Of a stretch of DNA of 64,000 bases, positions 21,553 through 32,279 are shown piece after piece. Positions within the stretch are counted from its first letter, which is position 1; the number at the start of each line of letters is the position of its first letter. A program made the translations under genes and the position numbers. The stretch comes from a virus, in the IMG/VR virus record IMGVR_UViG_3300011113_000491, positions 32,001-96,000 of that record. One strand, written 5' to 3'. The notes beneath the pieces are model-generated. The model saw nothing but the letters and a program-made list of their open reading frames with translations, ran no database searches and had not been told where the DNA came from.

Positions 21553-21627
21553 CACGGGTGACAGGAATCGAACCTGCATCATCCAGTTACGGTAAATCTG
21601 TTTAGAAGACAGAGCCGATACACCCGT
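21553..21627 (-). tRNA. tRNA-Arg(UCU)-like RNA lacking a D-arm
   Basis: Acceptor ACGGGTG/CACCCGT, anticodon arm TCTGT-CTTCTAA-ACAGA, T-arm GCAGG-TTCGATT-CCTGT; only 7 nt between acceptor and anticodon stems. Confidence 0.75.
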
Positions 21628-22681: not shown

Positions 22682-22698
22682 AAAAACATCCTTTATAA

Positions 22699-23062
22699 TG
22701 GAGGCCGGGGGAGTCGAACCCCCGTGTACCCTATACTTATGTATAAGCCCTACATGATTAGTTTCTTTTCATAAACAATTTCGTAAGGTAAGAAACAAAC
22801 TTACGAATTGCTTTGACTGTTAATTTCGAATCGTTTACCAGTCACTCACGATTCTATCAGATTTGAGAAGTCAGGAATTATCTGAGTCACTTCCTGTACC
22901 CTCTTGACGGTCCTAGTGAATTAAGGATCGACTGTTTCTCAAGCAGCCATTGCAAATGCTCTAGTGTTGGCATTTGTGGTTTGGTTGTTTTTAACGAAGC
23001 CATCAACCATCTTCGTCATGCTCTTCTACATTTGTCTAGAATATCGAATCCGATTGGCCCCC
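22699..23062 (-). ncRNA. ssrA: tmRNA, tag ANTRAFAMAA
   Basis: 5-prime GGGGGCC..GGATTCGA; 3-prime GGGGGTTCGACTCCCCC-GGCCTCCA with G3-U70; tag ORF at 22971-22939 ending AA-TGA; 364 nt. Confidence 0.95.
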
Positions 23063-23815: not shown

Positions 23816-24904
23816 TTACTTTGCTCCCAAAACATCTCTTCCGAGTATACCATTGGTTGTCAGCATATGGAAGGATGTATCTGCCAAAATGTCGAAAGAA
23901 AGTTGCTCGTAAAATCCGTTTGCTCCCCAAGGTGTTCCTTCGTGCCACAAACCTCTCTGCTGTGGTGGTGGAGTTGAGGATCCATTCCACCCTGCCCGGG
24001 CACGACGATCAGCGTCCATGACTTCAGAGACTGCAACGCCACTCACATGACCGTCAAAGAACAGGGCATTTGGTGTACTACTATTTCCTTGATTAAAGAA
24101 CCAAGGAGTGTATCCTCCAGCAAATCCCGGATTGAGTGGGCCACCGTCTTGATTCTGTAGCCAATAGAACTCAATCATGCGAGTCTTTAGTTCAGAATAC
24201 TTTGCTTGCCCCTGTGTGGGACACTTGTATCCTGCGGGAAGAGTGTTAGGGTTTCTGAATCCCTTGTCCGAAAGCACATCTGGATTCCACAATGCCGCAG
24301 GACTCCACACATATGTTGAAAACACTACTTGTCCCGGTTGATTGGGAAGCAAAGTAAATTCGCCCGGACTACCTAGACCTTCCTCTGCTCGTTCCATTGT
24401 CAGTTTGTCCTTTGGAGCAACAAAGGTGCGGTCATAGAAACGACCATTGATGTAACTATTGAACGCCTTCACATTAGGCAATCGGTAATAGCCGAATCCG
24501 CCGTTGGTGAAAGTCCACTCGTTTGGATGGTACACAATCCAATTGTTACACCCTCCCGGTTGTGTAGGCGGACACAAGCCACCGCCCAACCAGTACCCAT
24601 ACAAGTTTCCCTGACTATCCCATCCCAAAATTTGTTGACCGGGACATCCAATAGTATTCAGATACGTTTGGCAACCTCCGTTAGCAAGACCAAAATCGTC
24701 TGCTGCCTGTGTAAACTGACGGTCAGCATAATCAGCCCCGTAAGTAGCATTAGCAGCAGCTAGATTTCGTAGATTACCAAGACTCTGAGTCACTAGAGCA
24801 GCATCTCTTGCTCGTCCCAGTGCAGGAAGCAAAATTGCAATCAGTAGTGAGATAATAGCAACAACAACCAACAACTCAACAATAGTAAATGCCTTCTTTT
24901 TCAT
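23816..24904 (-). CDS. Prepilin-type N-terminal cleavage/methylation protein (DUF1559 / planctomycete pseudopilin family)
   Basis: KKKAFTIVELLVVVAIISLLIAILLPALGRAR..A......NL and C-terminal NALFFDGHV. Confidence 0.9.
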   Translation of the reverse strand: MKKKAFTIVELLVVVAIISLLIAILLPALGRARDAALVTQSLGNLRNLAAANATYGADYADRQFTQAADDFGLANGGCQTYLNTIGCPGQQILGWDSQGNLYGYWLGGGLCPPTQPGGCNNWIVYHPNEWTFTNGGFGYYRLPNVKAFNSYINGRFYDRTFVAPKDKLTMERAEEGLGSPGEFTLLPNQPGQVVFSTYVWSPAALWNPDVLSDKGFRNPNTLPAGYKCPTQGQAKYSELKTRMIEFYWLQNQDGGPLNPGFAGGYTPWFFNQGNSSTPNALFFDGHVSGVAVSEVMDADRRARAGWNGSSTPPPQQRGLWHEGTPWGANGFYEQLSFDILADTSFHMLTTNGILGRDVLGAK

Positions 24905-26758: not shown

Positions 26759-26779
26759 CGAATCACTCAGTTGTTAGTA

Positions 26780-27046
26780 TCAGGCGATCTGATAACGCGA
26801 ACCGTCACGGCGGAAACCGTAGGTGCGCTCACCCGGATGGGTGTCCCGCATGAAGTACCGGCCACGGGAGTCGGTCACGATTTCCCAGTTACCGTACTTC
26901 TCGACCATTTCGCGGATGTCGCTGATGGTAGCACGGAGGTTGCCCACACCGTACTTTTCTGCCGCTTCACGGGGGCAAAGACCCCATCCACGGGCGAGAT
27001 GATTAATGACCTGACGCTTCTTGCTGAGATTGCTGTTGTTACGCAT
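26780..27046 (-). CDS. Small winged-helix DNA-binding protein
   Basis: VINHL..G..L...EA..KYGV.NLRATISDIR HTH pattern; GC-rich codons; own promoter and terminator. Confidence 0.7.
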   Translation of the reverse strand: MRNNSNLSKKRQVINHLARGWGLCPREAAEKYGVGNLRATISDIREMVEKYGNWEIVTDSRGRYFMRDTHPGERTYGFRRDGSRYQIA

Positions 27047-27129
27047 AACGATAAATTCACTTTCCTAAATTACACTCTTCAATCTAAACCGGGGATTCCG
27101 AGTGTCTGAGTCCCGATTACTATGCAAGT

Positions 27130-27158
27130 ATTGTAGCAGACTGTTTCCATTCTGTCAA
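27130..27158 (-). promoter_or_regulatory. Strong sigma70 promoter
   Basis: TTGACA-17-TACAAT with TGn extension. Confidence 0.8.
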
Positions 27159-27196
27159 TACCCTGAGAAGAACTTTCTTAAGATTGTTCTTCTCAA

Positions 27197-27271
<75 letters not shown>

Positions 27272-27374
27272 AATGCGGTTGGCGATGCCGCTTACGCCAA
27301 GGTTTATTTTTATGATCTGCTCAACCTTAAACACAGATGCACATCACATGTTAGGGACACCGTGACAACCCCTT
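27272..27374 (-). ncRNA. Candidate structured RNA: three tandem H-type pseudoknots
   Basis: Pairings AGGGG/UCCCU+GUCAC/GUGAU, AUCUGU/GCAGAU+AAGGUU/AACCUU, GGCG/CGCC+GCGG/CCGC; non-coding, directly 5-prime of tRNA-Lys. Confidence 0.6.
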
Positions 27375-27468
27375 ATAATATACACATTGATAGGTTCAAT
27401 GCAGACCAAAATAATAACTTATGTTAAAGATGATACATGTTTAACTCCGTTACTTTCTTACGCTTTAA

Positions 27469-28029
27469 TTATAGCACAGTTGCGGTGTTTGTCAATACCC
27501 ACCACTCTGGAATCTTATTATTCTTCCACTTGGCAAACCGTGCCTTTGCGCCGATATAATACGCACGATATGCCATTACAGCATCTTCGTTCTTGTAAAT
27601 ATCTGGCATTGCTTGAGCAAACGGCGTAAGAGGACCATTTGTGATATTTGCGGGTCTGTTCTTCTGTAACCATACAAGCAAATTGTTTGATGTATGAACC
27701 TTACCATAACGAGATGTGTATTCATTGCACATCTCTACGGCATGAGATGCCAACCAATCATAGTTTGTATTCGTTTCCCTAGTCCAAATTGTACAGGGAT
27801 GATTAATCATTGTTGATTGATATAGAAATCCATCAATGATTGGGTTATGGTGACGATAAGTAGTGTACTTTCTACCAGACTTTGTAAGTTTGACAGAATA
27901 GTATCCATCAAGATAACGGTGTGCTGTTGAGAGTAATTGAGCACTCTCAAGAATCATCTTGACTACATGCTTGTCACATAGTGATTGTGCTGCAACTGTT
28001 GGATTGTTGTCAAGTACAAAGATATTCAT
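27469..28029 (-). CDS. Pyrimidine-dimer DNA glycosylase / endonuclease V-like protein
   Basis: MNIFVLD..P..AA...CDKHVVKMILESAQLLSTAH, NHPC..W.R, FAQAMP..Y, AYR.YY motifs. Confidence 0.85.
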   Translation of the reverse strand: MNIFVLDNNPTVAAQSLCDKHVVKMILESAQLLSTAHRYLDGYYSVKLTKSGRKYTTYRHHNPIIDGFLYQSTMINHPCTIWTRETNTNYDWLASHAVEMCNEYTSRYGKVHTSNNLLVWLQKNRPANITNGPLTPFAQAMPDIYKNEDAVMAYRAYYIGAKARFAKWKNNKIPEWWVLTNTATVL

Positions 28030-28176: not shown

Positions 28177-29184
28177 TCATGCTCCAAAAATATTATTAAT
28201 CTGATTATTAACTCTGACAAATGTAGTACACTTTGGTAGATGCTTTAGTCTACTTGCACCAACATAGGTACAAGCAGATCGCAACCCACCTAGAATTTCG
28301 TTCAGGACATTGTTGACACTTCCCTTGTATTCTACCTGAACAAGTTTTCCTTCGCTAGCCCGGTGGGATGCTACCCCACCGAAATGCTTCTTCATGGCAA
28401 ACTCCGACGACATGCCATAAAAAGTTTTGTGTGTTAGAACACCATTTGAATATACTGGTGTTCCTTCAGACTCATCGGTGCCGGAAAACATCCCACCGAG
28501 CATAACGAAGTCAGCGCCCCCTCCGAAGGACTTTGCGATATCACCGGGACAGGTGCACCCACCATCCGCCATGATATGACCTCCCAGACCGTGTGCTGCA
28601 TCGGCGCACTCCATCACTGCTGAGAGTTGAGGATATCCCACCCCGGTCATCTTGCGTGTTGTGCATACGCTTCCGGGGCCGATTCCAACCTTGACTATAT
28701 CCGCGCCTGACAGGAGTAGTGCTTCTGTCATTTCCGCTGTTACTACATTCCCTGCTATGATTATTGCATTCTTCCATTTTTGTCTTGTTTCCTTTACTAG
28801 ATCAACAAATACTTCCGTATATCCATTTGCTACATCCAAACAGATAAACGGAACATCTTCATTATAAAACTCTTGTAGATTTTCCCTACTTGCCTCGTCA
28901 AGTCCGCAAGTCAACGCGATATATTCTTTATTTAGAATTTGATCATATTCGCCCTTGCTGATAAACTTGTGCATACAAGTAACACACCTGTAAGGACTTA
29001 GGGCATTTGCCATTTTTGATACGCCAATAGTATCCATGTTGGCAGCCACGATTGGAATACCAGTCCAAGTTCTTTTACTGTGCAAAAAGGTAAAGGTTCT
29101 AGTTAGATCTACTTCTGCTCGGGATGTCAACTTAGAACGCTTTGGACGAATCAATACATCAGAATAATCAAGTTTCATTTCCAT
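28177..29184 (-). CDS. guaC: GMP reductase
   Basis: KLDYSDVLIRPKRS, AANMDT, CLDVANGY, KVGIGPGSVCTTR, FYGMSS, RASEGK, GGLRSACTYVGA. Confidence 0.96.
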   Translation of the reverse strand: MEMKLDYSDVLIRPKRSKLTSRAEVDLTRTFTFLHSKRTWTGIPIVAANMDTIGVSKMANALSPYRCVTCMHKFISKGEYDQILNKEYIALTCGLDEASRENLQEFYNEDVPFICLDVANGYTEVFVDLVKETRQKWKNAIIIAGNVVTAEMTEALLLSGADIVKVGIGPGSVCTTRKMTGVGYPQLSAVMECADAAHGLGGHIMADGGCTCPGDIAKSFGGGADFVMLGGMFSGTDESEGTPVYSNGVLTHKTFYGMSSEFAMKKHFGGVASHRASEGKLVQVEYKGSVNNVLNEILGGLRSACTYVGASRLKHLPKCTTFVRVNNQINNIFGA

Positions 29185-29398
29185 TAGATTTCTTTCCACT
29201 ATTCTTTCCACCCATATGTGTTTCAATATGGAGTTGGAGAGACTTCATCTTCTTTGCAAGAGTTTTTCTATCTGCCTTGTCAAGAAGATACTGCTCATAA
29301 GTATACACTGCCTGCGTTGCAAGTTCAATCAGTTCGATGACATATTCATCATCATGTGCGTTTTGTTTAGTTCTCCCGAACAACTTCAATTTCCTCAA
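29168..29398 (-). CDS. Hypothetical protein
   Basis: Operon ORF; start uncertain. Confidence 0.5.
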   Translation of the reverse strand: MRKLKLFGRTKQNAHDDEYVIELIELATQAVYTYEQYLLDKADRKTLAKKMKSLQLHIETHMGGKNSGKKSNGNET

Positions 29399-31850: not shown

Positions 31851-32279
31851 ATGAACTTAAAAGAATACTATAAAGAATTACTTTCAGAGCAACTATTGAA
31901 TGAAATAGGTGCAGCAAAATTAGGAAGAATCGAAAAATCAATTAAAAGAAAAGAAGCACAAAAAGATAAAACAACAGCGGCAATTGATTCCAGTCGCGGA
32001 AGAATACAGGATGCTCTTTTAAATCCAGATGCAGTAAAAACCGCAGCCGTTGGACCCGGAAGTCCCCTACAACAGAGACTTAATGCACTGTATATGGCAA
32101 GAGCCCGTGGTCAAGTTGGAAGAAAAGAAAAACTCAATAAACGAGGGATGAAAATAGCAGGACAGGCTGGTATGGCAATTGGCCAGGGTGCTACAAATCG
32201 AGATACAATTCAATCATATAGCGATAGAATCGGTGGACTTGGCCACCCAGGCGGTCACCCTAGATTTAGACCTAGATGA
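31851..32279 (+). CDS. Basic late protein with CTS-like leader (MNLKEYYKELLSEQLLNE)
   Basis: AAGGA SD; late promoter; terminator follows. Confidence 0.7.
   Translation: MNLKEYYKELLSEQLLNEIGAAKLGRIEKSIKRKEAQKDKTTAAIDSSRGRIQDALLNPDAVKTAAVGPGSPLQQRLNALYMARARGQVGRKEKLNKRGMKIAGQAGMAIGQGATNRDTIQSYSDRIGGLGHPGGHPRFRPR

Follow-up and report, generated by a model that had tools for sequence, protein, structure and literature searches.

The window analyzed here is a stretch of 64,000 nucleotides (nt) of viral DNA, positions 32,001 to 96,000 of IMG/VR record IMGVR_UViG_3300011113_000491. On its minus strand, directly 5' of a gene for tRNA-Lys with the anticodon UUU, lies a leader of 103 bases (the reverse complement of 27374-27272) that is almost certainly a genuine structured RNA family, as judged from covariation across its relatives. 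Our preferred reading, to which we give a probability of roughly 0.4, is that the leader is a conserved 5'-leader RNA domain of the tRNA-Lys(UUU) transcript that is specifically recognized and acts mainly in cis. The source record is 123 kb long and estimated to be 55% complete, and its T4-type baseplate genes identify the virus, an uncultured freshwater phage, as a myovirus. Coordinates are those of the window, and features lie on the minus strand unless stated otherwise.

The initial annotation, made from the sequence alone, had described the leader as three back-to-back H-type pseudoknots beginning just after a TATTAT box. Its coordinates and strand were correct, the three pairings that it wrote out are all literally present on the minus strand (27373-27275), and its box is the TATATTAT box found directly upstream of the leader. 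The leader and its immediate surroundings comprise the following features.

27382-27375, minus strand: -10-like TATATTAT box, directly 5' of the folded leader (sequence reading; putative transcription start)
27373-27343, minus strand: module 1 (pseudoknot 1, PK1), hairpin AGGGG (27373-27369)/UCCCU (27357-27353) with a loop GUCAC (27366-27362) able to pair with the downstream GUGAU (27347-27343); from the sequence
27338-27299, minus strand: module 2 (PK2), H-type pseudoknot with stem 1 (S1) AUCUGU (27338-27333)/GCAGAU (27320-27315), loop 1 GUUU, stem 2 (S2) AAGGUU (27328-27323)/AACCUU (27304-27299), loop 2 GA and loop 3 (L3) CAUAAAAAUA; from the sequence and covariation
27298-27275, minus strand: module 3 (PK3), hairpin GCGG (27291-27288)/CCGC (27278-27275) with a loop CGCC (27284-27281) that pairs with GGCG (27298-27295), directly 3' of module 2; from the sequence and covariation
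27274-27270, minus strand: AUUUU linker between leader and tRNA, with a predicted RNase P cut between 27270 and 27269
27269-27197, minus strand: tRNA-Lys, anticodon UUU, no encoded CCA (ARAGORN; Rfam RF00005, 75.3 bits; bounds 27270/27269 to 27196/27197 across the two)

In any stretch of 100 nt, short stems that interleave are a common occurrence, and the pattern seen in a single sequence proves nothing by itself. Spotting pseudoknots in one sequence carries no statistical weight here, and the case is carried by the relatives.

Relatives of the leader and covariation of its helices

Relatives were sought through the flanking proteins and not through the RNA itself. A query with the denV-like protein retrieved 3 close viral contigs, and a query with an 88-amino-acid (aa) winged-helix protein retrieved 32 viral loci and 61 metagenome loci (loci and contigs are given as L numbers). 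Among 18 loci with an upstream tRNA-Lys that were examined, a leader-like stretch was present in 13 and absent from 5 (L114, L115, L118, L121, and L122). A regular expression recovered the element in 27 of the 61 metagenome loci, and inspection of the regions upstream of tRNA-Lys added L193, L198, and L200 together with five loci belonging to a third clade; the other metagenome loci are either short contigs or, like L210, arranged without a leader. A further three, L089, L090, and L134, came from two motif scans over the collection of viral sequences. After deduplication, 30 distinct homologous leaders were obtained from contigs of uncultured T4-like phages, and these fall into three clades: clade A, with the window's own group (A1) and a second one (A2) that includes L096, L097, and L169; clade B, with 18 sequences; and clade C, with 2 sequences.

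A covariance model built from clade B only (R1) detects the leader of the window with 27.6 bits (E of about 9e-4 in 250 kb), and the model search found one copy of the leader in each of two phage records searched whole. Model R1 had no match to the clade A2 leaders (L003/L004 and L096/L097) or to clade C at the thresholds used, and a second model (R2) listed neither of these clades at E<=1; the homology of clades A2 and C rests on synteny and on the shared GGCG...UCGCC and AAGGUU/AACCUU blocks. No viral contig matched a 19-nt block of clade C, and in cultured phages nothing matched the locus, the 88-aa protein, or either type of leader, whether as DNA or as protein. A degenerate pattern scanned over the genomes of 185,579 species gave 30 hits, approximately the number expected by chance, and all were taken as such. 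Five of these 30 were listed at E<=10 with R1, the best being L240 (20.3 bits), a stretch with neither a tRNA nor the PK3 hairpin.

Since MAFFT alignments mis-registered P1, S1, and the PK3 hairpin between clades, segment lengths anchored on GGCG were used instead, together with an Infernal alignment. Pairs were counted over 25 sequences that are distinct over the core, in an alignment set by hand from integer segment lengths, and compared with 2000 column shuffles.

PK2 stem 1: 85% standard pairs; double changes in 6 of 9 columns; pairing reached by 0 of 2000 shuffles
PK2 stem 2: 95% standard pairs; double changes in 2 of 7 columns; pairing reached by 0 of 2000 shuffles
PK3 hairpin: 99% standard pairs; double changes in 7 of 7 columns; pairing reached by 0 of 2000 shuffles
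PK3 loop pairing GGCG:CGCC: 100% standard pairs; double changes in 1 of 4 columns; pairing reached by 88 of 2000 shuffles

As seen, both stems of PK2 covary across the relatives, so that this module consists of two supported interleaved helices, as an H-type pseudoknot should. Its S1 occurs as 15 distinct strand pairs, among them AUCUGU/GCAGAU, AUCCAU/GUGGAU, AUCGAC/GUCGAU, AUUGUGGG/CCCACAAU, and GCGUAU/AUACGC, and nearly all of the unpaired cells fall in two outer columns missing from most of clade B. In clade A, stem 2 reads AAGGUU/AACCUU; its clade B counterpart, UAGUUUC/GAAACUA, shows changes from A-U to U-A and from G-C to U-A. In PK3, the hairpin is strongly supported (15 distinct strand pairs), while the loop pairing rests on its invariance and on one compensatory variant: GGCG:CGCC is unchanged in 24 of the 25 distinct sequences and reads AGCG:CGCU in L173, with the same sequence in contig L174. 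The S1 and PK3 hairpin helices hold 15 G.U cells, and the constraint therefore acts on RNA, in the sense of the tRNA strand.

As a check that does not depend on the hand-set alignment, model R2, which was built from nine clade B sequences and contains two nested helices only, was then used by Infernal to align 21 sequences. Across four helices, including the pseudoknotted ones, 92.4% of the cells were standard pairs, compared with 75.7 +/- 1.1% after shuffling (reached in 0 of 500); 17 pairs had changed on both sides (11.1 when shuffled), and the covariation score was 0.423 (0.125 when shuffled). When the partners were slid by 1 to 3 columns, 40 to 45% were paired. This alignment misplaces S1 in the clade A rows, as well as the 5' strand of S2 (S2a) in the window, and stem 1 is therefore understated rather than inflated.

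Module 1 is less uniform. Its loop-tail stem, and with it a pseudoknot, stands only in the closest relatives of the window (A1); outside A1, the module is a plain hairpin or is missing. Within A1, the second position of the loop-tail stem is U-A in the window, L160, and L163, A-U in L002, L089, and L162, and G.U in L095 and L164. These sequences are very similar and show a single compensatory event, which makes the support suggestive but not strong. Clades A2 and B have plain hairpins of other sequence as module 1 (16 distinct strand pairs): clade A2 has a bulged hairpin, GUACCCG/CGGGAC, and clade B has a plain hairpin of 7 to 9 bp with compensatory changes, such as GAUGAUUU/AAAUCAUC versus GAUAAUUU/AAAUUAUC. 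No module 1 hairpin could be assigned in clade C. The modules of clade B abut without linkers, which suggests one long coaxial stack, whereas the clade A hairpin stands 5 to 14 nt from pseudoknot 2. The box upstream also has counterparts, a TATTATATTAT(G/A)AGAG block before the clade B leaders and TGTTATAAT in L089.

The description of the leader as noncoding was also borne out. No reading frame is conserved in it: frames that are open in some relatives are closed within a few codons in others, relatives with an ATG run into stops after 4 to 6 codons, and the insertions and deletions are not multiples of three.

The adjacent tRNA-Lys and processing of the leader

Each of the distinct leaders is followed immediately, on the same strand, by a tRNA-Lys gene or a tRNA-shaped element, and the linker from the last stem to position +1 of the tRNA measures 4 to 8 nt in 28 of 28 fully parsed leaders. 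This position suits the release by RNase P cleavage that the initial annotation had proposed. This constant adjacency is consistent with RNase P, in its established role, removing the leader, and such removal, with a cut at 27270/27269, is very probable. A cut 5 nt after the last stem would leave a compact RNA of approximately 105 nt, with a 5' hairpin and a 3' pseudoknot, in which structure buries both ends.

Of the 30 distinct leaders, 27 precede a tRNA-Lys(UUU) gene, which in one case (L089) is split by an insert. In L106, L179, and L196, the gene behind the leader resembles tRNA-Lys(UUU) but is atypical, with the acceptor stem GCUUCGG/CCGAAGC, the T-loop GGCAGUA, and a D-loop without GG. 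These genes (L106:188-260, L179:1174-1245, and L196:397-470) were all missed by ARAGORN; in Rfam, the L179 copy scored 45.5 bits, and the L106 copy was not listed at E<=0.1. In clade C (L173:530-598, and the same place in L170), the leader is followed by a second tRNA-like element and then by tRNA-Lys. The acceptor stem of this element covaries (GAAUGCU/AGCAUUC versus AAAUGCU/AGCAUUU) and its T arm is kept, but the anticodon arm is either shortened or carries a loop of 6 nt; in Rfam, the element scored 49.9 bits in L173 and was unmatched in L170. An acceptor stem and T arm that persist while the anticodon arm decays fit a processing signal.

Some changes within the tRNA-Lys gene itself were also observed. 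In two close relatives, L089 (1268-1540) and L161 (1-100), an insert of approximately 184 nt interrupts the gene behind the CUUU of the anticodon loop. The insert follows U, ends in G, and resembles a group I intron; none of the intron models of Rfam matched it at E<=0.1. In L161, an HNH-type open reading frame is inserted after the tRNA.

Parts of the locus are contained in eight runs recorded as RNA from several studies. The contigs that were compared come from four freshwater metatranscriptomes of one study; transcript ends are not visible in such contigs, and the recovery of small structured RNAs is poor. They cover the winged-helix gene up to 27156-27184 (span 26764-27184) and, in one run, the upstream gene down to 27373, and they also hold tRNA look-alikes from other organisms.

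Possible roles of the leader and comparison with known RNAs

S2, GGCG/UCGCCA, and several loops are conserved beyond what stability needs, and recognition by a macromolecule is therefore thought likely. As far as sequence can tell, this conservation points to a protein, RNA polymerase, RNase P, or a ligand as the partner. Under our preferred reading, transcription would start from the promoter-like box of the leader or from a stronger promoter approximately 100 nt upstream, the folded domain would set in cis the amount of mature tRNA-Lys and of downstream RNA that is made, and the leader, once released, would be either a stable by-product or a further product. From the upstream promoter (27495-27468), the transcript could carry approximately 90 nt of extra leader.

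Several observations weigh against this reading. The leader of the window alone is no better than chance in the comparison of pseudoknot folding with shuffled controls that the initial annotation had proposed: its nested minimum free energy has a z score of -1.28, with 23 of 200 shuffles folding equally well, and its number of H-type pseudoknots was matched by 473, 393, and 93 of 500 dinucleotide shuffles for stems of at least 4, 5, and 6 bp, respectively, in a rough test that counts non-overlapping candidates with maximal stems only. The structural alignment was set by hand, and that of Infernal was fitted to S1 and the PK3 hairpin. The covariation of S2 is a single clade-level event, A versus B, and this stem contains 3 G.A cells, 5 terminal-column mismatches, and no G.U, so that a DNA inverted repeat would fit it equally. 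Compensatory support for GGCG:CGCC comes from one haplotype on two contigs, and PK1 is not conserved beyond the closest relatives. For clade B, RNAalifold favors pairing of GGCG with tRNA positions -1 to +3, a pairing that is impossible in clade C and was rejected. Relatives without the leader (L114, L115, L118, L121, L122, and L210) have a bare promoter 10 nt before tRNA-Lys, and the leader is therefore dispensable for tRNA-Lys expression, an addition and not a necessity. The leader core (27278-27345) is found in no contig of the four metatranscriptomes, a result that says nothing on a small structured RNA. Finally, the results fit a role in cis and a role in trans alike.

A trans-acting RNA, in which the leader would be the real product, with its 3' end set by RNase P, and would bind a host or phage factor, for example as a decoy or inhibitor against anticodon nucleases over tRNA-Lys, is a serious if rather unlikely explanation. 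It agrees with the constant adjacency to a tRNA-shaped element, which persists in clade C next to a degenerate one, although a cis element would be expected to show the same adjacency. Both ends of the leader are structured, its loop and stem sequences are strongly conserved, and the tRNA-Lys locus is a hot spot of change (the anticodon-loop insert, the atypical tRNA-Lys genes, and the degenerate duplicate). Host tRNA-Lys is moreover a target of defense: it is cleaved by PARIS, from which phage T5 escapes with a tRNA-Lys of its own (PMC11464382). Nevertheless, no loop shows a visible mimic of the anticodon loop. Slightly less likely again is a broader proposal, that of a counter-defense or regulatory RNA released by RNase P, a compact pseudoknot stack that either binds a host factor active on tRNA-Lys, so as to neutralize or sense it, or else reprograms RNA polymerase for the cluster of tRNA and transfer-messenger RNA (tmRNA) genes; if true, it would make the leader a new class of phage noncoding RNA tied to tRNA-targeting immunity.

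Antitermination, with RNA polymerase made resistant to Rho or terminators across a largely untranslated co-directional cluster, would make the leader comparable to the put RNA of HK022, an antitermination leader with two hairpins, or to boxA/Nus leaders. We consider it improbable. Like the lambda nut/rrn boxA and HK022 put elements, the leader is promoter-proximal, and it heads the co-directional cluster from 27.4 to 21.5 kb (minus strand); RNA contigs from three runs of one study extend 34 to 62 nt past the predicted start of the next promoter on its upstream side, which hints weakly at read-through. The exact octamer CGCUCUUA, the lambda boxA (PMC2724277), is found at the S1b/L3 junction of PK2 in 10 of the 30 distinct leaders (L103, L108, L110, L112, L129, L135, L179, L182, L196, and L197). 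It is however missing from the window and from the other 19 distinct leaders, its CGC is paired within S1, and any 8-mer is expected by chance approximately 4 times in a 120-kb genome. The leader also occurs in a single copy per genome, larger tRNA arrays lack it, and the cluster has further promoters of its own. Its architecture differs both from the boxB-boxA-boxC layout and from the two put hairpins, and membership among boxA/Nus leaders was rejected, CGCUCUUA and UGCUCUUUA both being absent from the window.

Quite improbable, in our view, is a riboswitch or attenuator in which PK2 serves as the aptamer and the PK3 hairpin with a U-rich tail as a terminator that gates transcription of tRNA-Lys. 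The conserved loops around an H-type pseudoknot would suit it, and in several relatives a G+C-rich PK3 hairpin is followed by U-runs, as in CCCCUGU-UUUAUUUU of L112. Yet four distinct leaders (L108, L111, L186, and L202) have no U-rich tail (AAUC, AAAUUC, or AAAUCC), the PK3 stem of the window has only 4 bp, no covarying anti-terminator partner was seen for the 5' strand of the hairpin, and no Rfam riboswitch matched at E<=10. A T-box-like reading was likewise rejected, as complementarity of the loops to the lysine codon or anticodon is not conserved. An operator at the level of DNA, with the inverted repeats S2 and GGCG/CGCC as half-sites for a regulator such as the neighboring winged-helix protein, is very improbable, even though both repeats are kept as sequence without G.U, the spacing from S2a to S2b in clade B is almost fixed at 18 to 19 nt, and the gene of the winged-helix protein is kept in synteny. 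Both the interleaved S1 and the hairpin of PK3 vary freely yet stay paired, their G.U cells would be mismatches in DNA, and there are relatives that have the winged-helix protein but no leader.

The leader has no match in Rfam at the gathering thresholds or at E<=10 (five matches were listed at E<=10, none of them in the leader), and therefore preQ1, the known small ribozymes, riboswitches, and plant-virus pseudoknots are excluded as far as covariance models can see. No model of a described antitoxin RNA was among these five matches; Rfam presumably includes one for ToxI. A tRNA or tRNA-like RNA was rejected as an identity for the leader, since RF00005 matches 27197-27269 only. The initial annotation had considered a mimic of ToxI antitoxins and a sensor like preQ1-I, to which we can now give hardly any probability; the nuclease block and the released noncoding RNA that it also proposed may still hold. 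The likeness to ToxI lies in a general look, a short pseudoknot-forming RNA in a setting of phage defense. ToxI, however, consists of tandem identical repeats of approximately 36 nt that are cut by its own toxin, whereas the three modules of the leader are unrelated in sequence, and Tandem Repeats Finder detected 0 arrays in 27100-27520, where direct repeats of approximately 34 to 36 nt would be expected of a ToxI. With preQ1-I riboswitches, the leader shares a small H-type pseudoknot and, in the window, an A-rich loop 3. It differs from them in an S2 of 6 to 7 bp, in its genetic context, and in that the A-rich loop is not conserved: loop 3 of PK2 reads CAUAAAAAU in A1, including the window, CAUGAAUA in A2, and UACCUAC, UACUUAC, or UACAAAU in clade B.

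The closest architectural parallel is found in plant RNA viruses, which carry pseudoknots upstream of a tRNA-like structure in the 3' untranslated region (UPD of tobacco mosaic virus and UPSK of turnip yellow mosaic virus) that act in translation and replication. In both settings, a viral RNA has a tRNA-shaped structure with stacked pseudoknots immediately on its 5' side. Those viruses, however, have RNA genomes and a tRNA mimic, while here a DNA phage has a real tRNA gene, without sequence relation; no UPSK or UPD model of Rfam matched the leader at E<=10, and the resemblance is architectural only. A parallel in processing is offered by MALAT1-mascRNA and by the tRNA-microRNA units of gammaherpesvirus 68, in which RNase P, cutting at a tRNA-like element downstream, generates the 3' end of a noncoding RNA. 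They too have a structured RNA directly 5' of a tRNA-shaped element, and clade C keeps a decayed one; they are, however, eukaryotic or animal-virus cases, and release of the phage leader is a prediction. By-products of tRNA transcripts may also persist or act in trans, as do the 3'ETS-leuZ (external transcribed spacer) sponge of Escherichia coli and the stable RNAs of the phage T4 tRNA cluster. These are by-products in the same sense, but they are not pseudoknotted 5' leaders and have neither sequence nor structure in common with ours.

The initial annotation had called the RNA undescribed, which agrees with its absence from Rfam and from the literature searched, where nothing describes a pseudoknotted leader of a phage tRNA-Lys. 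A survey of IMG/VR reported 8,495 candidate structured RNAs (PMC10690425); the portions of its text on tRNA and pseudoknots do not mention the leader, which its supplementary tables might list. On sequence grounds, the leader would thus appear to be a new RNA family, a structured RNA co-transcribed with a tRNA. At a minimum, it is a clean new family of approximately 100 nt with four to five helices and two pseudoknots backed by covariation, suited to structure determination and to testing the effects of structured leaders on RNase P processing. Phage tRNA genes are now viewed as countermeasures to tRNA-cleaving defenses, with tRNA-Lys(UUU) as the best-documented target (PARIS; PMC11464382). 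A conserved, complex RNA domain fused to exactly this tRNA, in one copy per genome, suggests an undescribed extra layer of control or counter-defense.

Neighboring genes and other features of the locus

Around the leader and its tRNA, the following features were identified.

27495..27468, minus strand: sigma-70-like promoter TTGACA-16-TATAAT (consensus scan, 12/12; a consensus match only)
27194..27165, minus strand: 9-bp hairpin GAGAAGAAC-12 nt-GUUCUUCUC, 3' of the tRNA, with no U-tract (sequence reading)
27158-27130, minus strand: sigma-70-like promoter (promoter scan, 11/12)
27046-26780, minus strand: gene of the 88-aa winged-helix protein (Pfam HTH_39, E = 1e-3, below the cut-off of that family)

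The promoter at 27495-27468 overlaps the stop of the denV-like glycosylase gene, approximately 100 nt upstream of the TATATTAT box, and its sequence recurs in L002, L003, and L004. In clade A2, a hairpin similar to the one behind the tRNA, with a T-run (GAAGAAC...GUUCUUUUU), lies between the upstream promoter and the leader. The hairpin after tRNA-Lys is itself kept in L003/L004 as GAGAAAAAC/GUUUUUCUC, with a change from G-C to A-U; its loop has a palindromic core, CUUAAG (27165-27194 in the window; 2425-2455 in L003), and the change in clade A2 is compensatory.

The winged-helix gene is syntenic with tRNA-Lys in the relatives and served as the marker by which they were found. The co-directional minus-strand cluster contains, from 27.4 to 21.5 kb, tRNA-Lys, small genes, a tmRNA, and further tRNAs. 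Matches to TTGACA sigma-70-type promoters (11 to 12 of 12) are spread along it at 27495, 27158, 26369, and 21683, and GGGTAT precedes those at 27495 and 27158, the two that were read. The tmRNA, at 22696-23062 (minus strand), encodes the tag ANTRAFAMAA and scores 119.4 bits in Rfam; the tmRNAs of L107 and L113, with the tag AAPMRMAA, were asterisked by ARAGORN and were taken as the permuted type. A second tRNA, at 21553-21627 (minus strand), was found by Rfam only (36.9 bits), with no ARAGORN call. It lies 28 nt behind a 12/12 sigma-70-type promoter (21683-21656) and therefore has a short leader only.

The RNA cluster is flanked by a gene of the GMP reductase/IMPDH family (28177-29226, minus strand) and by a gene for a protein with a pilin-type N-terminal methylation motif (23816-24904, minus strand). 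Elsewhere in the window, the G+C content rises to 49 to 60% between 34000 and 50000, compared with 28 to 44% outside this segment, which could reflect a foreign or host-derived block or a chimeric assembly.

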